Of a stretch of 63,519 bases of DNA, positions 9,052 through 39,604 are shown piece by piece. Location of the stretch: positions 1 through 63,519 of the forward strand of contig JAZQAZ010000009.1 of the NCBI GenBank assembly GCA_045545475.1. Direction: 5' to 3'. The DNA is from Clostridia bacterium (lineage in GTDB: Bacteria; Bacillota; Clostridia; CAKSNL01; HGM11501). The notes under the pieces are model-generated. The model saw nothing but the letters and a program-made list of their open reading frames with translations. It ran no database searches and had not been told where the DNA came from. The translations under genes were made by a program, and so were the position numbers. The first letter of the stretch is position 1; the number at the start of each line of letters is the position of its first letter.

Positions 9052-9201
9052 TTATATTCATCCTTTCGGGATTATAATTTCTGAAATTATATTATATCAC
9101 GTTTTTTTTCTTATTGCAAGTATAATTTATACGGAATAAAGCTTGTGATACGTCAAGATTTTAATAAAAAAACGGATGAGGCTAAAGCCGCATCCGTTTT
9201 T

Positions 9202-9474
9202 TTACTGTACTGTTTCGGTATCTTCCATGGTGCCGTCTATTGTGTCATCTGGCATTTCGGCAGGTGTATCATCGGTGCCGTTTGTCATATCGTCTGCAAA
9301 ATCCTTTGTATCATCAATCATATCGTCTGCCATATCTTCGGTTTCGTCAATTATATCATTGGCACCGTTTTCGATGTCATCGCTCACCCCGGGACTGTTT
9401 CCGTCGGGCATACCGCAGGCTGCGATGATAAACAGAAGGGATACTGTCAGTAAAATAGAAATAAGTTTTTTCAA
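9202..9474 (-). CDS. Small acidic lipoprotein with Asp-rich low-complexity repeats
   Basis: TTG start after AAGGAGG; lipobox IAAC; own terminator at ~9166-9202. Confidence 0.7.
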   Translation of the reverse strand: MKKLISILLTVSLLFIIAACGMPDGNSPGVSDDIENGANDIIDETEDMADDMIDDTKDFADDMTNGTDDTPAEMPDDTIDGTMEDTETVQ

Positions 9475-9601: not shown

Positions 9602-10666
9602 ATGTTTGAAAAATTGGCTTTTATTGAAGAACGCTATGAAGAGCTTACGAAAAGTATAAGTGATGTTTCCGTAATGGAGGATAGATCAGAGTGGAGCAAG
9701 CTTTGCAAGGAGCATGCCGACATGACTCCTATTGTGGAAAAATACAGAGAGTATAAAAAATACAAAGAATCCATTGAAGAAGCAAAGATGATTTTGGAAG
9801 ACTCTTCGGCAAAGGAACTGCATGAGCTTGCAAAGATGGAGCTTGATGAATGCCTTGATGCGGCATCGCTTTGTGAGGAAGAACTTAAAATATTGATGCT
9901 CCCGAAAGATCCCAATGACGATAAAAATGTAATTATGGAAATAAGAGGCGGAGCAGGCGGCGATGAAGCGGCACTTTTTGCGGCAAACCTTTTCAGAATG
10001 TATTCCATGTTTGCAGAATCCAGAAGATGGAAAATTGACGTAATGAATACCAACGAAACAGGACTTGGCGGAATAAAAGAAATTTCTTTTATGATAATAG
10101 GTCAGGGGGCATATAGTACTCTTAAGTACGAAAGCGGAGTTCACAGAGTGCAGAGAGTTCCGGACACCGAATCCCAGGGAAGAATCCACACTTCAACCGT
10201 AACCGTCGCGGTGCTTCCCGAGGTTGAAGAGGTGGAGGTTGAAATAAACCCCAATGATTTAAGAATTGACGTTTTCCGTGCGGGCGGCCCCGGCGGTCAG
10301 TGCGTTAATACGACAGACAGTGCGGTTCGTATCACTCACATCCCCACAGGACTTGTGGTAAGCTGTCAGGACGAAAAGAGCCAGCATAAAAACAAGGATA
10401 AGGGTATGAAAATTCTCCGTTCCCGTCTTTATGAGCTTATGCAGTCCCAGCAGCACGAAAAGGTGGCATCCGAGCGTAAGAGTCAGGTCGGAACAGGTGA
10501 CAGAAGTGAGAGAATAAGAACCTATAACTTCCCCCAGGGAAGAGTGTCGGACCACAGAATCGGTCTTACCCTTCACAAAATTGATGCCATTATGAACGGC
10601 GATTTAGACGAACTTATTTCAGCACTTACCCTTCACTATCAAAGCGAAAAATTAAAAGAGCAATAA
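9602..10666 (+). CDS. prfA: Peptide chain release factor 1
   Basis: [17 protein letters not shown] (PxT), [13 protein letters not shown]. Confidence 0.97.
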
Positions 10667-16916: not shown

Positions 16917-18452
16917 ATGAGCAAGGCTGCAATAGAACTTAAAAACATAACAAAAACCTTCGGAAGCGTAGTGGCAAATAAAAATGTAAATCTCACCGTA
17001 AACAAAGGGGAAATACTTTCTATTCTGGGCGAAAACGGAAGCGGAAAAACTACCCTTATGAACATGATTTCGGGGATTTATTCCCCCGACGAGGGTGAGA
17101 TTTTTATTGATGGGATGCCTGCGGTGATTTCCTCGCCGAGAGATGCTTTTGACTACAAAATCGGAATGATTCATCAGCACTTTAAATTGGTCGAAGTGTT
17201 TGATGCAGCGGAAAACATCATTTTAGGCCTGGAGGACGAAGGAAAGTTTGACAAAAAGGCATATATTGGCAAAATAAATGAAATCAACAATCAGTACGGT
17301 TTTGGTATGGATCCCTTAAAGAAAATTTATGAAATGTCCGTATCTGAAAAACAGACTGTTGAAATCATAAAAGTTTTATTCCGTGGTGCCGATATTCTTA
17401 TCCTGGACGAGCCCACGGCGGTTTTAACCCCTCAGGAAACGGAGAAACTTTTTGATGTTTTAAGAGAGATGCGTGATGACGGCAAGGCGATTATTATTAT
17501 AACCCACAAGCTTAATGAGGTTATGGAAATTTCAAATCGTGTAGCGGTACTCCGTAAGGGGGAGTACATAGGAACTGTTGAAACCAAGGATACATCAGAA
17601 ACAGAGCTTACGGAAATGATGGTTGGTAAAAAGATAAGCCTTAATATTGAAAGAAAAGAACCTGAAGGAGTTACCGAGCGTCTCGTGGTAAAAAATATCA
17701 ACTGCAAGAGCCGTGAGGGAGTAAAGCTTCTTGAAGACATTTCCTTTACTGCAAATTCTGGTGAAATTTTAGGTATTGCAGGTATTGCGGGAAGCGGACA
17801 GAGAGAGCTACTGGAGGCTATAGCAGGTCTTCAGCATATGGAAACAGGAGATATTTTATATAATGATCCGAAAACAGGTGCAGTTGAAGATTTAAAAGAT
17901 AAAACTCCAGTAGAGATAAGAGAAATGGGAGTAAGGCTTTCCTTTGTTCCTGAAGACAGACTGGGCATGGGCCTGGTTGGCAATATGGATATTGTGGATA
18001 ACGTAATGCTAAGAAGTTACAAAAAGGGTAAGAGCGTTTTCCTTGAGAGGAAGGCACCCAAGGACCTGGCGGAAAAAATTATCGACCAGCTTGAGGTAGC
18101 AACTCCGGATGCCAACACTCCGGTAAGAAAATTATCCGGCGGTAACGTACAGAAGGTTCTTGTTGGCCGTGAGATAGCATCAAGCCCCACTGTTTTAATG
18201 GTCGCATATCCCGTAAGAGGTCTTGATATAAACTCCTCATACACAATATACAATCTTTTAAACGAGCAGAAAGAAAAGGGCGTTGCGGTTATATATGTAG
18301 GTGAAGATCTGGATGTTCTTTTAGAGCTTTGTGACAGAATATTGGTTTTGTGCGGCGGAAAGATAAGCGGAATTGTTGATGCAAGAACGACGACGAAAGA
18401 AGAAGTCGGTCTTTTGATGACAAGGCTTAACGGAGGTGAAGGTAATGAGTAA
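16917..18452 (+). CDS. ABC transporter ATP-binding protein (CUT2/nucleoside type, two NBDs)
   Basis: GENGSGKTT, LILDEPT, LSGGNVQK. Confidence 0.93.
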   Translation: MSKAAIELKNITKTFGSVVANKNVNLTVNKGEILSILGENGSGKTTLMNMISGIYSPDEGEIFIDGMPAVISSPRDAFDYKIGMIHQHFKLVEVFDAAENIILGLEDEGKFDKKAYIGKINEINNQYGFGMDPLKKIYEMSVSEKQTVEIIKVLFRGADILILDEPTAVLTPQETEKLFDVLREMRDDGKAIIIITHKLNEVMEISNRVAVLRKGEYIGTVETKDTSETELTEMMVGKKISLNIERKEPEGVTERLVVKNINCKSREGVKLLEDISFTANSGEILGIAGIAGSGQRELLEAIAGLQHMETGDILYNDPKTGAVEDLKDKTPVEIREMGVRLSFVPEDRLGMGLVGNMDIVDNVMLRSYKKGKSVFLERKAPKDLAEKIIDQLEVATPDANTPVRKLSGGNVQKVLVGREIASSPTVLMVAYPVRGLDINSSYTIYNLLNEQKEKGVAVIYVGEDLDVLLELCDRILVLCGGKISGIVDARTTTKEEVGLLMTRLNGGEGNE

Positions 18453-31577: not shown

Positions 31578-32936
31578 ATGATTAAAGATAAAGCTTTTTA
31601 CAGAGAGTTTTTCAGCCTTTATGTTATGCTTGTGCTTCAGAATGTGATAGTTCTCGGCGTAAATTTAGCTGACAATATAATGATAGGCTCTTACAGCGAA
31701 ACGGCACTTTCCGGAGTTGCGGCGGTAAACCAGATTCAGTTTGTGTTTCAGCAGATTATTATGGGCTGCGGCGATGCAATCGTTGTTCTCGGAAGTCAGT
31801 ACTGGGGGCAGAAAAGATGCAAAGAAGTTAATAAAATTTCATTTTCTGCCATGACGTTGGCACTTTTAGCTGCAGCCATCCTTTTCACCCTTGCCCTTTT
31901 TATTCCTGAAAAGGTTGTGGGAATTTTTACACCCACCGAGGCAATTGTGGCATCTGGCGTTGAGTATATAAATATCATAAAATACACCTACATAATTTTC
32001 GCAATCACAAACGTGCTTCTTGCGACTTTAAGATGTGTGGAAACGGTAAAAATCGCCTTTTTAGTTTCCCTTGCAACGCTTTTTATAAACTGCTCCATAA
32101 ATTTTGTTTTAATCGAAGGTCGCTTCGGCTTTCCCGAGCTTGGCGTAACGGGTGCGGCAATAGGAACGCTTACGGCAAGAATAATAGAACTTGTTATCGT
32201 TATAATTTATGTTGCATTTTACGATAAAAAGCTTAAGATAAAGCTTACTGAGTACATAAAGATAGATAACAAGCTTTATTCCGACTATATAAAAATTGCC
32301 CGCTCTGTTGTATTGGTTGCGGCAATGTTCGGCGTATCAACGGCGCTTCAGACCGTAATCTTAGGTCATATGTCCGATGCGGCAATTGCGGCAAATTCCG
32401 TATCCACATCCCTTTTCCAGACCCTTAAGGTGGCATCCATCGGTGCATCTGCCGCAACGAGCGTCATCATAGGAAAGGCTGTGGGAACAGGAAACATAGA
32501 AAAGGTTAAAAGCTATACAAAAACCCTTCAGATTATGTTTATCATAATAGGAGCTGTTACAAGCACTCTTTTATTCTTCTTAAGGATTCCGATTTTGTCT
32601 CTTTATGATTTAAGCGAGGAAACAAAATATCTTGCTAATGCATTTATTTTGGTGCTTTGTGTAACGGGCTTTGGTACGGCATATCAGATGCCTGCATTAA
32701 CCGGTATAGTAAGGGGCGGGGGAGATCCCGACTTTATCTTGAAAAACGATATTATAAGCATATGGTGCATCGTTCTTCCTGTGTCATTTCTTGCGGCGTT
32801 CTACTGGCACTGGCATCCCATTGCCGTGGTGTTCTGCTTAAACGCCGATCAGATTTTCAAATGCGGTGCGGCGGCAATTAAAACCAACAGCTACACCTGG
32901 ATAAAAAGCCTTACAAGGGAGACGAAAAATGGATAA
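31578..32936 (+). CDS. MATE family efflux transporter
   Basis: DNIMIG, SQYWG, FGFPELGVTGAAIGT, RGGGD. Confidence 0.9.
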   Translation: MIKDKAFYREFFSLYVMLVLQNVIVLGVNLADNIMIGSYSETALSGVAAVNQIQFVFQQIIMGCGDAIVVLGSQYWGQKRCKEVNKISFSAMTLALLAAAILFTLALFIPEKVVGIFTPTEAIVASGVEYINIIKYTYIIFAITNVLLATLRCVETVKIAFLVSLATLFINCSINFVLIEGRFGFPELGVTGAAIGTLTARIIELVIVIIYVAFYDKKLKIKLTEYIKIDNKLYSDYIKIARSVVLVAAMFGVSTALQTVILGHMSDAAIAANSVSTSLFQTLKVASIGASAATSVIIGKAVGTGNIEKVKSYTKTLQIMFIIIGAVTSTLLFFLRIPILSLYDLSEETKYLANAFILVLCVTGFGTAYQMPALTGIVRGGGDPDFILKNDIISIWCIVLPVSFLAAFYWHWHPIAVVFCLNADQIFKCGAAAIKTNSYTWIKSLTRETKNG

Positions 32937-33744
32937 TCTTCAGAATCTTCACACTCATTCAACCTACTGTGACGGAAAACATACTTTAGAAGAAATGGTG
33001 AATTACGCCGTAAAAAAGGGTTTTTCTTCCCTGGGCTTTTCGGGGCATTCATATATGTTTTTTTCAGAAAGCTATTCGATGAGTTTATCGGGCACCGAGG
33101 AATATAAAAAGGAAGTTTCTTATCTTAAAGAAAAATACAAAGGGAAAATCGATATATTCTGCGGACTTGAATTTGAAAAGTATTCAAAGGTGGAACTTAA
33201 GGACTATGACTACATAATAGCATCAAGCCACTATTTTAAGATAGGGGATAGCTATGTAGGCTTTGACCGTTCAAAGGACGAGGTTAAAAGGGTGATTGAC
33301 ACATACTTTGAAGGAAGCGGAATTTCCTTTGCAAAGGCATACTACAGTGAGGTTGCAGAACTTCCGTCTTATGGAAAATTCGATATATTGGGGCATTTTG
33401 ACCTAGCTGCAAAAACTGTGGAGCAGGGACACTTTTTCGATATTGAAAGCAGGGAATACTTAGATGCGGCAATTACGGCAATTGATGCCGTATCAGGTAA
33501 AATTCCCTTTTTCGAGGTAAACACCGGGGCAATTTCAAGGGGCTACAGACACCTTCCTTATCCGTCCATTACCCTGATGAAGGAGTTTAAGAAAAGGGGC
33601 TTTGGTGCTGTGATAAGCTCCGACTGTCACGACGGGGAGCATCTTGATACGGGCTTTTTCCTTGCAAGAGAGCTTCTTACAGAATCTGGCTTTACAGAGA
33701 AATATATACTTACCGAAAGCGGCTTTAAAGCCGTAAGCTTATGA
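32929..33744 (+). CDS. PHP-family phosphatase (histidinol-phosphatase HisJ/HisK-like)
   Basis: NLHTHSTYCDG, GFSGH, GHFD, EVNTG, SSDCH. Confidence 0.85.
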   Translation: MDNLQNLHTHSTYCDGKHTLEEMVNYAVKKGFSSLGFSGHSYMFFSESYSMSLSGTEEYKKEVSYLKEKYKGKIDIFCGLEFEKYSKVELKDYDYIIASSHYFKIGDSYVGFDRSKDEVKRVIDTYFEGSGISFAKAYYSEVAELPSYGKFDILGHFDLAAKTVEQGHFFDIESREYLDAAITAIDAVSGKIPFFEVNTGAISRGYRHLPYPSITLMKEFKKRGFGAVISSDCHDGEHLDTGFFLARELLTESGFTEKYILTESGFKAVSL

Positions 33745-33752
33745 GGTGAAAT

Positions 33753-34862
33753 ATGGCTGAACTTATAGAAGGCTTTATGAATTTAAGCCTGATAACAAAA
33801 ATAATGCTTGTCTTTTCTATCATTGCGGCACTTGACCGTATTATAGGGAACAAATTCGGTCTCGGCAAGGAATTCGAGCGCGGCTTTATGCTGATGGGCG
33901 TAATGATGCTCACAATGACGGGTATGATAATAATATCACCCCTTCTTTCCAAAATGCTGGAGCCTTGCTTTTCAGGCATTTACAACCTTTTCGGAATTGA
34001 TCCATCAGTAATTCCTGCATCACTTTTCGCAAACGATATGGGCGGTGCACCTCTTTCTCGTGATGTGGCGATGAATCCTGAGGTTGGAATGTTTAACGCC
34101 CTTATAACCTCATCAATGATGGGCGCAACCATTTCCTATACCATTCCTTTTTCATTGGGAACAGTTAAAAAGGAGCAGCATAAGGAGCTTATCGTAGGGC
34201 TTTTGTGCGGTATCGTTACAATTCCCATCGGGTGCTTTGTGGGCGGCCTTATGTGCAGAATAAACATTTTAACTCTGCTTTTAAACATTTTGCCTCTTGT
34301 GATTTTTTCACTTCTTATTGCACTGGGGCTTTTCTTTTTCCCTGATTTATCGGTTAAAGTTTTTTCATGGGTAGGAAAGATAATAACCGTGATTATAACG
34401 GTGGGATTGGTCCTTGGCGGAATTGAATTTCTGACAAAGGCAAAAATAACGGACTCTCTCGTTTCGATTGAAGAAGGTACTTATGTGTGTATGAACGCAT
34501 CAATTGTTATGTCGGGGGCGTTTCCGCTTATATATGTTATATCGAAAATTCTCCGTAAGCCCATGGAAAAGCTGGGAGAAAAGATGGGCATAAACAGCGA
34601 CTCTGCCATAGGCTTTGTGTCAACATTGGCAACCAATGTAACAACACTTGGCAATATGGAAAAAATGGATAAAAAGGGAGCGGTATTAAATTCTGCCTTC
34701 CTGGTTTCCGCCGCTTTCACCTTTGCGGGGCATCTTGCTTTTACCCTTGCCTTTGACGGGGCATACATCTATCCCATGATAGTGGGAAAGGTGACGGCCG
34801 GCATAATGGCGGTTTTCGTTGCAATGATTATTTATAAGAGAATATATGAAAAAGAGCTGTAA
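33753..34862 (+). CDS. eutH: Ethanolamine utilization transporter EutH-like
   Basis: DRIIGNKFGLG.EF..G, ANDMGG, MMGATI.YTIP, AF.VSAAF...GHL.F. Confidence 0.85.
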   Translation: MAELIEGFMNLSLITKIMLVFSIIAALDRIIGNKFGLGKEFERGFMLMGVMMLTMTGMIIISPLLSKMLEPCFSGIYNLFGIDPSVIPASLFANDMGGAPLSRDVAMNPEVGMFNALITSSMMGATISYTIPFSLGTVKKEQHKELIVGLLCGIVTIPIGCFVGGLMCRINILTLLLNILPLVIFSLLIALGLFFFPDLSVKVFSWVGKIITVIITVGLVLGGIEFLTKAKITDSLVSIEEGTYVCMNASIVMSGAFPLIYVISKILRKPMEKLGEKMGINSDSAIGFVSTLATNVTTLGNMEKMDKKGAVLNSAFLVSAAFTFAGHLAFTLAFDGAYIYPMIVGKVTAGIMAVFVAMIIYKRIYEKEL

Positions 34863-34865
34863 TTT

Positions 34866-35687
34866 TTACAGCTCTTTTCTGTACCTTCCGGGACTTGTTT
34901 TCATAATTTTTTTAAACACACGGCAAAAGCTTTTTGAGTCGGCAAAGCCAACCTGAAATGCAACCTCATCAAGCATTGCTCTGCTTTCCTTAAGGTGAAT
35001 ACAGGCAATTTCCACGCGGTGGCGGTTAAGCACACTGTAAAATGTTTCCCCGGTGATTTTTTTAAATACTCTGCAGAAATTGCTCTTGCTGTATCCGCAT
35101 TCTTCCGATACATAGTCGATATTTAACGGCTTTGAATATTCTTTGTATATAATCTGAATTGCCTTTTCTACTCTTATGATATCGCGTATGTCCTTCGACT
35201 GAATATCTGTATTTTCGTTTTTGGCAAAATCACGTATAAGAATGTGACATATCTTGAAAATATTTCCTTTTACGGCAAGATCCGAAAATTCCGTGCGGTT
35301 TGTCATTAAAAATGCGGTTTCGTTAAGGAGTGTACGGAGCTTTATTCCTGCATCACTGTTCTCGCACTTTTCTATAAGAACATTAAAGTTGAATTTCATA
35401 AATAAATCAAAGTGTTTTGAAAGTAATCCCGGGCCGGTTTCTATGGTAAGCATTTTTGCTTTTTTTGGTGATTTGATTTCGTGAGATGCCATAGGCTTGA
35501 CAAAAGCGAGGTCTCCTTCTTTCAGCACATATTTTCTGTTGTCGATTATTATTTCATATTCGCCCTCTATGCAATAGCTTAATTCTATTTCGGGATGTCT
35601 GTGAATGGGGAAATCCTCGGAGGGTCCTGAAGATACAAAGTATGCATCTTTGTCAGCAAGCAATTTCTGGTAAATCAAATTAATCAA
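34866..35687 (-). CDS. AraC family regulator
   Basis: HRHPEIEL; VGFADSKSFCRVFKK...SP. Confidence 0.9.
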   Translation of the reverse strand: MINLIYQKLLADKDAYFVSSGPSEDFPIHRHPEIELSYCIEGEYEIIIDNRKYVLKEGDLAFVKPMASHEIKSPKKAKMLTIETGPGLLSKHFDLFMKFNFNVLIEKCENSDAGIKLRTLLNETAFLMTNRTEFSDLAVKGNIFKICHILIRDFAKNENTDIQSKDIRDIIRVEKAIQIIYKEYSKPLNIDYVSEECGYSKSNFCRVFKKITGETFYSVLNRHRVEIACIHLKESRAMLDEVAFQVGFADSKSFCRVFKKIMKTSPGRYRKEL

Positions 35688-35824
35688 CTCCTCTTAAAAA
35701 CAGTATAACACCAAGAAAAAGTCAAATCAATACATTTGTGAATATTTGCGAATTTTTTAAGAATAAACATCCTTGCCGAAGAAAAAGTAAGGATGTATAC
35801 TTGAAGTAAACAGGAGGGATTTAT

Positions 35825-37120
35825 ATGAAAGACCTATTTATGGGGGCAGCCCGTGAAGTAATAACACCGAAAGTCGGAGCTCTTTTATACGGATATGTTC
35901 CCGATTTACATTCTGAAAAGGTGGCAGATGAACTTACGGCAACCGCATTTTATTTCAGACAAGGGGAAAAAGAGGCCCTTATGATAAGCCTTGCGGTGTG
36001 CCAGATAAATACAGCTCTTTCTGACAGGATAAGGGATTTAATTGAAGAAAAGTTCAATATTCCCGAGGAAAACTGCATTTTAGCCGCATTTCACACTCAT
36101 TCGGGACCTAATGTTGCGGGAACCGAGGGATGGGGAGATATTGACAGAGATTACTGTGATGAAATTTTCATTCCGGGAATAATTAGGGCTACAGAAGCGG
36201 CTGTTAAAAAGGCAGAAAGAGTGAGAGCTGGCGTTTCCAAAGGAGAATCCCTTGTGGGGGTAAACCGCCGTGAAATAAGAGCAAACAATAAAATTGACTT
36301 CGGTCAGAATCCGTGGGGATGTTTCAATCCCAGAATGACGGTAATATCGTTCAAAAACGATGAGGGCAATGTTGTTGCCAACATTATCCATTACGGAGCA
36401 CATTGCACCGCAGCAGGCAGAAACACCGAAATAAGCCGTGACTGGGCGGGGGTTATGGTTGACTCTCTCGAAAAGGAAAGCGGAGGAATTACTGCATTTT
36501 TCAACGGTGCAGAAGGAGATGTGGGGCCGAGACTTTCAAACGGTGGTACGACAGGCGATATGAGCCATGTAAAGGAAACAGGAGAAATTGCAGGTCGTGA
36601 TGCGGTGAGAATTTTTAAGGAAATAAAGGATTTTTATCCTGCAGAGCTTAAAGCATCGCAAGCTGTGATTGAAATTCCACTTAAAAAGAGACTTTCAAAA
36701 GAAGAAGCAAAGGAAATGTACGAAGCATATAAACATCATACGGTAAATGTATGGGGAATGACGAGAGTGCATCTTGAAAAAGTTATTGCATCCTATGAAG
36801 AAGGCTATGAGGATAAAGAGTTTATCGAAATCCCTCAGGTTGTAATAGGAATAGGTAACGTATTTTTTGCATCAACACCATTTGAACCTTTTTCCGAAAT
36901 CGGATTGAGGGCGGATAAAATGGCAGAGGACGCCGAGGTTTTAATGCTTTCAAATGCAAACGGCTCTGAAGGCTATTTTATAACGGAAGATGCTCTTTGC
37001 CGCGGAGGATACGAAGTAAATATGTGGTTATACAAGGATATTCAGCCTTATTCCGACGATGCGGACTGGCATCTTGCAATGCGCACGGCTGAACATATAA
37101 AGAAAGTAAAGGAGAGTTAA
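35825..37120 (+). CDS. Neutral/alkaline ceramidase-like hydrolase
   Basis: ITP, HTHSGP, NRR, YGAHCT, NGAEGDV, PFEPF, ANG..GY, GGYE. Confidence 0.75.
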   Translation: MKDLFMGAAREVITPKVGALLYGYVPDLHSEKVADELTATAFYFRQGEKEALMISLAVCQINTALSDRIRDLIEEKFNIPEENCILAAFHTHSGPNVAGTEGWGDIDRDYCDEIFIPGIIRATEAAVKKAERVRAGVSKGESLVGVNRREIRANNKIDFGQNPWGCFNPRMTVISFKNDEGNVVANIIHYGAHCTAAGRNTEISRDWAGVMVDSLEKESGGITAFFNGAEGDVGPRLSNGGTTGDMSHVKETGEIAGRDAVRIFKEIKDFYPAELKASQAVIEIPLKKRLSKEEAKEMYEAYKHHTVNVWGMTRVHLEKVIASYEEGYEDKEFIEIPQVVIGIGNVFFASTPFEPFSEIGLRADKMAEDAEVLMLSNANGSEGYFITEDALCRGGYEVNMWLYKDIQPYSDDADWHLAMRTAEHIKKVKES

Positions 37121-37121
37121 T

Positions 37122-38294
37122 ATGTACAGAATAGGAATTGAAGAAATAAACGAGCTGAAAAAGGTAATTGAATCGGGAGATCTTTTTAAAATAAACGACG
37201 GAATCCGTGAATCACGTAAGGTTGAAGATAAGCTGAAATCAATTTTCAAAGCGGAATATTCCATTTTTATGACAAGCGGTCACGCAGCACTTACTTCTGC
37301 CCTGGTGGCTCTCGGAATAGGCCCCGGAGATCAGGTTATAGTTCCTGCCTATACATACATAGCAACGGCAATAGCGGTTGTTGCAGCCGGTGCGATTCCG
37401 GTTATTGCCGAGGTTGACGATACGCTTACCATATCGCCCGCTGATATAGAAAGAAAAATAACACCTGCAACAAAGGCTGTTATGCCGGTTCATATTCAGG
37501 GCTTCCCCTGTAATATGGATGCTGTAAGGGAAATTGCGAAAAGGCATAATCTCTTTGTTATAGAAGACGCCTGTCAGGCTGTGGGCGGAAAATATAAGGA
37601 TAAGTATCTTGGTGCAATAGGCGATGCGGGGGCATTCAGCTTTAACTATTTCAAAATTGCAAGCTGCGGTGAAGGGGGAGGCTTTCTTACAAACAATAAA
37701 GATGCTTTTGAACGAGCCCTTATTTATCACGACAGCAGTGCAATAGCATTTTTCGGAGACCAGCTGGATGGTGTTTCAACGCCCAATTTCTGCGGGCAGG
37801 AATTTCGCTCCAACGAAATTTGTGCGGCGGTTTTAAATATTCAGCTTGATCGCCTGGATGGAATTTTAACCGATTTAAGGAAAAATAAAAAGTATCTTAT
37901 GGAAAAACTTTCCGACGTGGCAACATTTATTCCGTCAAATGACATAGAAGGGGATTGCGGAACTACCCTTGCATTCAGCTTTGATTCAGCAGATAAAGCG
38001 TGGAATTTTGCCTATGCTGAAGGAATAAGAGGGACAATTCCCATAAGAACCGGCAAGCACGTTTACCGTAATTGGGATTGTGTTATGGAAAAGAGGGGGG
38101 CTTTTAATCCGCTTATGGATCCCTTCCGTATGGAAGCCAACAAGGGGATAATTCCCGATTACCGCGAGGATATGTGCCCTGAAACCCTTGATAAGCTTTC
38201 AAAGGTTGTGTATATGAGTATGAATCCCGATGCAACAAAGGAAGAGCTTGATGCTACGGTTGAAGCAGTGAGAAAGGCAATTGCCGGACTTTAA
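37122..38294 (+). CDS. DegT/DnrJ/EryC1/StrS sugar aminotransferase
   Basis: GIGPGDQVIVPAYT, EDACQA, FSFNYFK (PLP Lys), GEGG. Confidence 0.9.
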   Translation: MYRIGIEEINELKKVIESGDLFKINDGIRESRKVEDKLKSIFKAEYSIFMTSGHAALTSALVALGIGPGDQVIVPAYTYIATAIAVVAAGAIPVIAEVDDTLTISPADIERKITPATKAVMPVHIQGFPCNMDAVREIAKRHNLFVIEDACQAVGGKYKDKYLGAIGDAGAFSFNYFKIASCGEGGGFLTNNKDAFERALIYHDSSAIAFFGDQLDGVSTPNFCGQEFRSNEICAAVLNIQLDRLDGILTDLRKNKKYLMEKLSDVATFIPSNDIEGDCGTTLAFSFDSADKAWNFAYAEGIRGTIPIRTGKHVYRNWDCVMEKRGAFNPLMDPFRMEANKGIIPDYREDMCPETLDKLSKVVYMSMNPDATKEELDATVEAVRKAIAGL

Positions 38295-38311
38295 TATGGA
38301 AATGTGATTAA

Positions 38312-38359
38312 AAAAAGCGACTTTCAGATTAGAAATTTCTAATCTGAAAGTCGCTTTTT
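38312..38359. terminator. Perfect 48-bp palindrome acting as probable terminator
   Basis: AAAAAGCGACTTTCAGATTAGAAA|TTTCTAATCTGAAAGTCGCTTTTT with no spacer. Confidence 0.8.
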
Positions 38360-38589
38360 ATCAGCTTTAACGGTGGGCGAAAAAACGCTGTTCGCGTTTT
38401 TCAATTTGTCTGCCTCCGCTTGAACGTAAGAAAACTTTTGTTTTCTTTTAGTACCCGAAAAATCTTGTTTAGATTTTTAACCGGGTACTACCTTACTCCG
38501 CATCGGCTTTGTTGCCGAATGCTCCGCACGGCTCCGACAGACTCTCGCAAAAAAATCTTTGTTGATTTTTTCTGCTAAAAGTCGCTTTT
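38347..38589. other. Structured non-coding insert (MITE-like or ncRNA) bounded by 12-bp direct repeats
   Basis: AAAGTCGCTTTT at 38347-38358 and 38578-38589; five hairpins, four with TGTT-containing loops; four CTCCG motifs. Confidence 0.6.
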
Positions 38590-38680
38590 GTGCACTTTTA
38601 GGCAAATCAGGTCTTGATTGTCTATTTAAAATCATGTAAACTTATGTTATGATGATTATGAAATAGGGTTGGTGGTAAAT

Positions 38681-39604
38681 ATGGTATATTACAAGATTGA
38701 CCTTCGTGATATCTTAAGAGTAACGCTTTTGGGCAAGGAAAAGCTTATTCCGCCGAGAATGCACTATAAACGTAATACCGTTGAGTACATCATGTACGTG
38801 GTGCTGGACGGAAAACTGCACCTAAAAGTAAATGATGAAGAAGTTACTTTGATGCCTGGAGATGTTCACATTTTCAATCAGGGAGACTATCAGGAAGCCT
38901 TCGAGAGCAGTTACTGCGAATACTATTACATCCATTTCCGCTCGCCTTACATCGAAAAGTCGGAAATGGAAGAAGCGGAATTTTTGGCACTCTGTGCAAA
39001 AAAGGAAGAAGAATTCAAGAAAATAGAGTTTTACAGAGAAAGCTGCTATGACTATTTTTATGTGTATCTGCCCGAGCACTTGCACATCGAATCTGCGAGC
39101 CTGTTTGAATATATAACAAACACTCTTAAAAACAATACACTAACACCCCTTACTCCCAGAAGCAAGAGCGTTGAAAACCGCTTTTCTGTTTCCGCATCCT
39201 TTGAAAAGATTTTGTTTAAGCTTGAAAAGTCCGAAACTCCAAAGCAGGATAACTCCCACAATATAGCCTGGAAAATAGCAGACTTTATTGATAAAAACTA
39301 TTTTCTTCCCATAACAGGAGAGGATATTGCAAAGGAATTTTTCTTAAGCTTTGACTACGCCAACAGAGTTTTCGGCAAGGTTATGGGCATAAGCATAATT
39401 AAATACAGAAACGATGTGCGTCTTCAGCACGCCAAGGCACTGATGCTTGCAACAACAAAGCCGCTACTTGAAATTGCATCCGAGGTAGGCTTTGAAAACG
39501 CCCACTATTTTTCAAGAATATTTAAAAAAGAAGAGGGAATTGCCCCCTCTGAATATAAAAAGGAATTTTTACGAAGCCAGAACATAGGAGGTCATTATGA
39601 ATAA
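38681..39604 (+). CDS. AraC family regulator
   Basis: YYIHF; VGFENAHYFSRIFKKEEGIAPSEY. Confidence 0.9.
   Translation: MVYYKIDLRDILRVTLLGKEKLIPPRMHYKRNTVEYIMYVVLDGKLHLKVNDEEVTLMPGDVHIFNQGDYQEAFESSYCEYYYIHFRSPYIEKSEMEEAEFLALCAKKEEEFKKIEFYRESCYDYFYVYLPEHLHIESASLFEYITNTLKNNTLTPLTPRSKSVENRFSVSASFEKILFKLEKSETPKQDNSHNIAWKIADFIDKNYFLPITGEDIAKEFFLSFDYANRVFGKVMGISIIKYRNDVRLQHAKALMLATTKPLLEIASEVGFENAHYFSRIFKKEEGIAPSEYKKEFLRSQNIGGHYE

Follow-up and report, generated by a model that had tools for sequence, protein, structure and literature searches.

The 63,519-nucleotide stretch of a Clostridia bacterium contig analysed here (the window) holds, between an aminotransferase gene and the gene for an AraC-family regulator, some 230 bp of DNA that is rich in hairpins and bounded by a 12-bp direct repeat. 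An earlier note on this sequence read the arrangement mainly as a non-autonomous mobile element inserted into one arm of a terminator. We asked what kind of element this is, how it came to be flanked by the repeat, and what it may do.

Anatomy of the element

Positions 38359-38589, read on the minus strand, are very probably one long-form unit of a modular, structured, intergenic repeat family that is specific to the genus. Comparison with other copies identified the minus strand as the sense strand, on which hairpin A stands first at the 5' end, followed by a GAGA linker and then by helix P2, whose 5' arm is separated from its cap by the extra hairpins I1, I2 and I3; beyond the cap come the 3' arm, hairpin C, a 20-nt tail and, at the 3' end, a palindromic terminator. 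The three extra hairpins, about 120 nt in all, lie within the P2 loop of this copy. The parts are listed below, with gene calls here and throughout made by ORF heuristics; the genomes of the genus are designated by G numbers (G000 being that of the window) and their contigs by C numbers.

37122-38294, plus strand: flanking DegT/DnrJ/EryC1-family aminotransferase gene, convergent with the sense strand of the element
38310-38359, no strand: palindromic, bidirectional terminator-like hairpin 3' of the aminotransferase gene, outer stem AAAGCGACTTT / AAAGTCGCTTT; it replaces the terminal hairpin A of the array
38347-38358, plus strand: direct repeat, copy 1, AAAGTCGCTTTT, identical with the 3' arm of the palindrome
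38359-38378, minus strand: spacer or tail from hairpin C to the terminal hairpin, of low conservation in G004
38379-38402, minus strand: hairpin C, GAAAAACGC-GAACA-GCGUUUUUUC (A5-CGC, GAACA, GCG-U6), terminator-like in both orientations
38408-38414, minus strand: 3' arm of the P2 closing helix, GGCAGAC; three of the seven helix pairs change on both sides between AraC-locus and parS-locus copies
38419-38426, minus strand: P2a cap, C-GUUCAA-G, the conserved apical loop of P2
38428-38447, minus strand: extra hairpin I3, AAGAAAAC-AAAA-GUUUUCUU, with compensatory changes relative to the parS-locus copies
38450-38489, minus strand: extra hairpin I2, loop AAACA, of which the inner stem alone is supported by the alignment fold
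38491-38531, minus strand: extra hairpin I1, with the inner stem-loop GCAUUCGGC-AACAAA-GCCGAUGC at 38500-38522
38536-38542, minus strand: 5' arm of the P2 closing helix, GUCUGUC, pairing with 38408-38414
38547-38575, minus strand: hairpin A, with an A/U-rich stem and the invariant loop C-AACAAA-G; the first module in every unit, with compensatory changes among G000, G002 and G004
38578-38589, plus strand: direct repeat, copy 2, reading AAAAGCGACUUU on the minus strand, directly 5' of hairpin A
38669-39604, plus strand: flanking gene for the AraC-family regulator; a site resembling a promoter lies on the plus strand at 38625-38653

The five hairpins that the earlier note had described were found within 2 nt of the positions it gave, with minus-strand loops GAACA, (C)AAAA(G), AAACA, AACAAA and AACAAA, and its four CGGAG motifs on the minus strand lie at 38414, 38496, 38522 and 38532. 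The closing helix it had considered possible is real and longer than claimed, with 7 bp formed by GUCUGUC (38536-38542) and GGCAGAC (38408-38414). Terminal inverted repeats were not seen, in line with the note: by-eye reading of the minus strand gave no inverted match between the ends, AGCAGAAAA... and ...AAAGCTGATA. Only its remark that no listed ORF covers the element proved wrong in this respect, since two mechanical 52-aa ORFs cross it, at 38420-38578 (plus strand) and 38477-38635 (minus strand).

Folding of the 301-nt minus strand from 38300 to 38600, which includes the terminator, gave an energy of -114.1 kcal/mol compared with -62.3 +/- 5.0 in 100 shuffles (z = -10.3). Two parts have the G+C-containing stem and the U/T tract of an intrinsic terminator, namely the palindrome at 38314-38357 (20 pairs, T tract on the minus strand) and hairpin C at 38381-38401 (8 pairs, plus strand); the remainder of the element is not a terminator. 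The array in the window has the less common orientation: it runs antisense to the genes on either side and occupies the space from the aminotransferase terminator to the AraC promoter. A search for a sigma-70-like promoter on the minus strand at this locus found none.

A structured repeat family restricted to one genus

Other copies of the element were found at 24 loci of this genome (blastn, 14 seed loci), all of them intergenic by the ORF heuristic. The first matches of the window element in its own genome lay on C34, C31 and C47, with related stretches on C23 and C17. The canonical short unit is about 100 nt long and consists of three parts: hairpin A, with a variable A/U-rich stem and the loop C-AACAAA-G; helix P2, in which the stem covaries freely and the cap is C-GUU(C/G)AA-G; and the terminator-like hairpin C (A5-YGC / GAACA / GCR-U5-6). 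Such units follow rpoD (C23, with three A hairpins and two full units), efp and a pfkB kinase gene (both on C17), and occur also on C41 and C47. Units are joined head to tail in arrays of one to three with a terminal hairpin A, a lone hairpin that closes the array at four loci (twice on C17, and on C41 and C47), and P2 exists in long and short forms. Sub-types on C40, C48 and C29 keep hairpin A and a terminal hairpin with a GAAMA loop and differ in the middle. The G+C content of model matches ranges from 0.29 to 0.47.

Covariation among the copies was strong: the stems covary, the loops stay fixed, and the structure is under selection. In 12 short units picked by hand from several genomes, 90.2% of cells pair, compared with 35-55% when the partners are slid; 17 of the 31 pairs change on both sides, and the covariation score was reached by none of 500 shuffles. 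The covariance model R1 gave 43 matches (40 distinct) from 11 genomes, in which pairing extends to 93.6% of cells and both sides change in 24 of the 31 pairs; the alignment of these 40 copies is fitted to R1, so that its pairing is inflated and favours the structure of the model. The loops are represented among the 40 copies by CAACAAAG (29), CAATAAAG (8) and CGTT(C/G)AAG (31). Since these copies are paralogous, part of the covariation may stem from the way in which copies arise, and only the orthologous comparisons, at the window locus and at C2:45.5k, are free of this. At the window locus, the element is 95.9% identical between G000 and G002 (92.5% for the AraC coding sequence) and 88.5% identical between G000 and G004 (78.6% for the AraC coding sequence), with compensatory changes in A, P2 and C; the change in hairpin C of G004 is from C-G to U-A. 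The element is thus repeated, structured and non-coding, as the earlier note had recognised. Each of the three outcomes that the note had named as refuting its reading failed to appear: other copies exist, at 24 loci here and in 11 of 12 genomes of the genus, an allele without the element is present in G003, and the covariation is strong.

For the long form, RNAalifold was applied to seven copies from the AraC and parS loci, in effect two lineages, and recovered A, the closing helix, I1, the inner part of I2, I3 and C; both sides change in 11 of the 59 pairs, three of which belong to the closing helix. A comparison of the strands gave 58 G-U against 26 A-C cells, or 28 against 24 if one conserved G-U pair, which closes the foot of hairpin C, is not counted. 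With numbers so nearly equal, the selected structure could be that of single-stranded DNA or of RNA of either strand.

The family is confined to a single genus. At E<=0.01, R1 matched 11 of the 12 genomes of the genus, with 27 matches in G000, 25 in G003, 20 in G002, 19 in G004, 13 each in G007 and G011, 11 each in G009 and G010, two in G008 and one each in G005 and G006; G001, which is 59% complete, had none. The two genomes from the order's two other genera gave no match. In a class-wide sample searched at E<=1e-5 (one genome unscored), G000, G007 and G009 were the only genomes matched, and all 145 that belong to other genera were without one. An exact-pattern scan of 185,579 species genomes (bacteria and archaea, one each) returned 19 loci, 10 of which have the hairpin context and fall in four metagenome-assembled records named 'Clostridia bacterium'; the other nine resemble chance matches in coding DNA. 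Scans of viral contigs with two family patterns gave zero and one loci. Rfam 15 matched the window region 37500-39500 (E<=10) only with miRNA-type chance matches on the palindrome, and matched none of the units at five loci with canonical units (E<=1). A literature search, with subscription journals outside its reach, found nothing relevant on a Clostridia repeat of this kind.

The genus is known only from metagenome bins, and the relatives of G000 are draft bins whose contigs are broken at repeats. Two contigs of G003, C489 (at its end) and C300, end at a repeat array when set against G000:C40:37525-37720, which suggests that the repeats probably break short-read assemblies in the genus; R1 can be used to annotate them there.

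Several loci have features of their own. The first 20 kb of C40 (L046, 1-20000) are prophage-like, with genes for a phage capsid, the large and small terminase subunits, ParB, YopX and an IrrE-like peptidase, and four family loci occupy its intergenic spaces, at about 1875-2056, 9139-9273, 9988-10029 and 17080-17277. This region is without a match in G002 and G004, and pieces of it occur at 84-96% identity in G010. On C34 (10150-10800; L002 1365-2052), an array of two long units stands between two parS-like palindromes, TGTTTCACGTGAAACA, beside a gene that reads as parA-like; at the matching locus of G002, G003, G004 and G010 a unit lies beside at least one parS-like palindrome, with differing unit numbers and forms. 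At C2:45490-45660 the first hairpin is a variant, TACATAAATTCAT-CAAATAA-TGAATTTATGTA, and by our own reading the upstream ORF runs through its 5' arm to a TAA stop in the loop, an arrangement kept in G003 and G010 with different downstream units.

Four other readings of the repeats were set aside. A small peptide (SD-like GGAGG with ATG or TTG, MKNAN...) would have its start codon in only about 17 of 40 units, the frame and length of the ORF vary between copies, and covariation in the stems of hairpin C cuts across the supposed codons. As for a CRISPR-like or type III antitoxin array, the 'spacers' are conserved repeats in their own right. A kissing pair between the loop of A and GUUGAA is contradicted by the position of the UUC of UUCAAC within the stem of A and by GUUCAA in half of the copies. 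Finally, TTTTGTGCAC as a general signature of 3' ends has only 10 copies in the genome.

The direct repeat and the history of the locus

The direct repeat is exact at 38347-38358 and 38578-38589, both on the plus strand, as the note had reported, and stands also in inverted form at 38313-38324, in the other arm of the palindrome. With at most one mismatch allowed, the 12-mer has five matches in the window compared with 0.76 expected, and five were reached in none of 100 shuffles.

We compared the orthologous locus in five genomes. G002 and G010 carry the same unit 3' of the aminotransferase orthologue. G004, which stands furthest apart among the five (AraC-region identity 78.8%), also has a unit beside AraC. 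An empty-site allele with one 12/13-mer, which the earlier note had suggested looking for, exists in the sister species G003, where the AraC promoter region comes straight after the terminator; the unit is missing there and AAAAGTCGCTTTT is present once. Contigs from the DNA runs X1, X2 and X5 bridge the filled form, and none of the joints listed skips the element.

These observations bear on the main reading of the earlier note, in which a MITE-like transposon has entered the terminator's 3' arm, with 12 bp of target DNA duplicated in the process. Exact 12-nt repeats around the unit and a G003 site with a single repeat and no unit would be expected from such an insertion, and the many dispersed copies, four of the loci being inside a prophage, are in keeping with it, as is occupancy that varies between species, for example at C40:46.2k, where G004 looks empty. 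However, identity to G003 in the AraC region is 97.7% for G002, 95.5% for G010 and 92.7% for G000, with G004 last, so that G003 is nested among filled genomes (G000, G002, G010 and the outlying G004) and its empty site is better taken as a secondary, precise deletion between the direct repeats than as the ancestral state. The hairpin that follows the unit in G004 is, moreover, an extended hairpin A, AAAAGCGACTTTTAGCAGAAAAATTC-AATAAAG-GAAATTTTTGCTAAAAGTCGCTTT, the outer stem of which is the 12-mer, and the direct repeat is there 21 nt long, that is, the start of the next hairpin A. The 12-mer being the outer 5' stem of this hairpin, the direct repeat reflects the periodicity of an array of the form A-...-A, a pattern shared with other loci, and it is not a proven target-site duplication.

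Further evidence against the insertion reading comes from the family as a whole. Besides the lack of any terminal inverted repeat visible by eye, no clean duplication was seen at the other loci compared (C40:46.2k and C2:45.5k), and arrays run head to tail and gain or lose units through recombination between A hairpins: at C2:45.5k, G003 has A-X-A-Y, G000 has A-Y and G010 has A-X. Blastn of the element and the 14 seed loci against the genome gave short intergenic copies only, and no long version bearing an ORF, such as one for a transposase. The only Y1_Tnp-like ORF of the genome (C30:129759-130073, 25.7 bits, in a frame of 178 aa) and its only RVT_1 reverse transcriptase gene (C10:141866-142417, 77.6 bits, in a frame of 337 aa) have no family hairpins near them, and an A hairpin with a stem is absent within 1.5 kb of the former. 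Targeting of terminators, the second part of that reading, does not describe the family either, as 12 of the 24 loci start at the stop codon of a co-directional gene and not in a terminator. We regard a MITE-like insertion as distinctly unlikely.

The simplest history, as far as it can be read from the sequences, would be that the unit was present in the common ancestor and that G003 later lost exactly the DNA from one direct repeat to the other. Slippage, or recombination of the two repeat copies with each other, could have taken the unit out cleanly in this one species. An apparent combination of insertion, target duplication and empty site can thus be array period plus secondary deletion, and calls of mobile elements from a single locus should be made with caution.

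Two further observations concern the surroundings of the locus. In G004 (L025, C173), the DNA beyond the AraC-side element matches the window from about 32914 downwards, and a segment of about 5.4 kb with ceramidase-like and aminotransferase genes (window 32914-38300) is therefore absent from that genome or lies elsewhere in it. In G000, a paralogue of the AraC promoter region (C50:5650-5900; TAAATAGACAA...CACAAAAGCGACC) has no repeat unit after it; what comes next is a terminator-like hairpin whose outer stem is similar.

Placement, possible function and comparison with known repeats

Half of the family's loci in this genome, 12 of 24, begin where a co-directional ORF (144-917 aa) has its stop. 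In these, the first position of the hairpin A stem ranges from -11 to +5 nt, counted from the base that follows the stop, and in eight of the 12 the stop, TAA each time, lies inside the stem. Of the remaining loci, two lie 37-56 nt after a co-directional stop, two are in 5' regions and three are unclear; about five run antisense to the genes on either side, namely the window copy, that on C34, two on C41 and the one at C48:34.9k. Across the genus, 17 of 31 representative matches have an ORF of at least 127 aa whose stop falls in the first 11 nt of the model. The genes upstream of units in at least two species are rpoD, efp, pta, pfkB, a ROK gene and a cell-wall hydrolase gene, so that orthologous sites between genes remain occupied over long periods. 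At efp and pta, by our own reading of the sequences, the non-coding arm differs between species in a way that keeps its pairing with the differing end of the gene. Arrays occur inside likely operons, between pta and ackA and between efp and its neighbour. In G011, a TPP riboswitch (58.6 bits, above the gathering score) directly follows a five-unit array (C4; L126 933-1023); arrays can therefore sit immediately upstream of the leader of another gene.

We consider it rather likely, for the explanation as a whole, that the family is a cis-acting structured repeat of the BOX/REP kind. That it does its work as RNA, in cis on the transcripts which contain it, is a more tentative proposition, and one that may well prove wrong. 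On such a transcript, hairpin A would lie on the stop codon or within 5 nt of it, and the stack of hairpins could shield the coding part from 3'-to-5' decay. Hairpin C would act as a partial or weak terminator; the arrays within likely operons such as pta-ackA imply that it is no strong one and that termination there is incomplete. A hairpin on the stop codon might also slow the terminating ribosome, by analogy with E. coli REPs, which stall ribosomes when fewer than 16 nt away from a stop (Liang et al. 2015, as cited in the available excerpt of PMC12306157). The fixed loops would call for a partner. If the placement of hairpin A on stops is functional, the family offers a natural, repeated test case for the effects of stop-codon structure on termination, mRNA decay and operon polarity in Gram-positive anaerobes.

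A role in the 3' UTR does not apply to the sense strand of the window copy, because this copy is antisense to both neighbours and without a sigma-70-like promoter. Since hairpin C provides a second terminator-like site on the plus strand after the palindrome, the most economical function at this locus is that of an insulator: the unit would serve mainly as a second terminator between the aminotransferase operon and the AraC-controlled genes. The contigs of metatranscriptome run X20 (0.08 of words), the only form in which that run could be used, cover some of each flanking gene and leave 37762-38608 bare save for a 35-nt piece, which says nothing either way.

A bolder proposal, which we think unlikely, goes further than cis action in general. 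It would make the family a dedicated, genus-specific RNA module, a 'stop-codon cap'. In its first hairpin, housekeeping genes such as rpoD, efp, pta and secA would have their stop and final codons enclosed, and the non-coding arm would co-evolve with the coding end. The invariant AACAAA, GUU(C/G)AA and GAACA loops would offer a multivalent platform to a putative factor that couples translation termination to the fate of the transcript 3' end, and the module would have been taken over by prophages of the genus for use with genes of theirs.

Two rivals to the cis-acting repeat remain to be weighed. Hairpins formed in single-stranded DNA might serve a strand-specific enzyme, such as a Y1/RAYT-like transposase, or replication or segregation, the latter hinted at by the copy between parS-like palindromes. 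The near balance of G-U and A-C cells (28 to 24 without one pair) is what would be expected if both strands, or DNA, matter; about five loci are inverted relative to their neighbours, the array with its two TGTTTCACGTGAAACA palindromes beside a parA-like gene recurs in five genomes, and one Y1_Tnp-like ORF (25.7 bits) is present. That ORF, however, is not flanked by repeats, the loop sequences are strand-specific, and the bias of starts towards co-directional stops is easier to explain at the level of RNA or translation, though gene orientation and replication direction are confounded. We judge a DNA-level element very unlikely. Equally improbable to us is a stand-alone, trans-acting small RNA made from the minus strand, whose AACAAA, AAACA and GAACA loops would serve an RNA-binding protein as binding sites or as a sponge, in keeping with the note's mention of a structured ncRNA and of multivalent protein binding. 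In its favour, conservation is higher in the element than in its flanks and compensatory changes are present, the loops do not vary across the genus, the 3' end is a terminator-like hairpin with a strong palindrome after it, and there is no co-directional gene upstream. Against it, a promoter-like site is absent from the minus strand, a 10-nt deletion in G004 removes the sole weak -10-like stretch upstream (by our own reading), no binding protein is known, and most members of the family are placed as parts of mRNAs abutting stops and not as separate genes.

The cis-acting repeat invites comparison with several described families. BOX elements of Streptococcus pneumoniae (boxA-boxB(n)-boxC) are, in the available excerpts of PMC3049150, modular, 67-637 bp long, intergenic and limited to one species group, with an extensive fold predicted if transcribed, co-transcription with neighbours and slow turnover relative to IS elements. 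The present family is like BOX in its variable number of modules, its intergenic position and its restriction to one group, and modules here are absent or repeated without breaking the fold. In contrast, the same excerpts give BOX terminal inverted repeats and target duplications, whereas here no inverted ends were read and the single duplication is otherwise explained; the units described here, moreover, are complete three-hairpin repeats, head to tail, with invariant loops and starts on stops.

REP/BIME sequences of enterobacteria and SMAG of Stenotrophomonas are extragenic stem-loops, single or clustered at gene 3' ends, that alter the stability of the upstream transcript, according to the portion of PMC3184786 available. 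All 24 loci of the present family are likewise intergenic by the ORF heuristic, and the 12 that abut a co-directional stop resemble REP/BIME in placement. However, that source describes REPs as G+C-rich single palindromes of 21-65 bp linked to RAYT, unlike the units of about 100 nt with three different hairpins and A/U-rich stems seen here, and no Y1 transposase in this genome is flanked by family repeats. The pneumococcal SPRITE, a repeat like a Rho-independent terminator with a single 18-bp duplex and a U-rich tract (PMC3049150, same excerpts), is similar as a dispersed repeat with an intrinsic-terminator-like fold, to which hairpin C and the array-ending palindrome correspond, but the terminator-like hairpin is here one of three modules.

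The family is not a member of BOX (set apart by description), REP/BIME, SMAG or SPRITE, because no inverted ends were read, no Y1 transposase is flanked, its tandem units have three A/U-rich hairpins and no Rfam match was obtained. Systematic scans of 40 cultured genomes have yielded stem-loop sequence families (PMC2267715, in the part available) which are similarly repeated, intergenic and united by a common secondary structure that possibly acts at the RNA level; that survey covered cultured genomes, whereas the present genus is represented by metagenome bins. The window element adds, from a lineage known only from gut metagenome bins, a well-supported structured repeat family with unusually clean covariation and fixed loops. 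This family is new and not a one-off, and belongs to a familiar bacterial kind, the small interspersed structured repeats.
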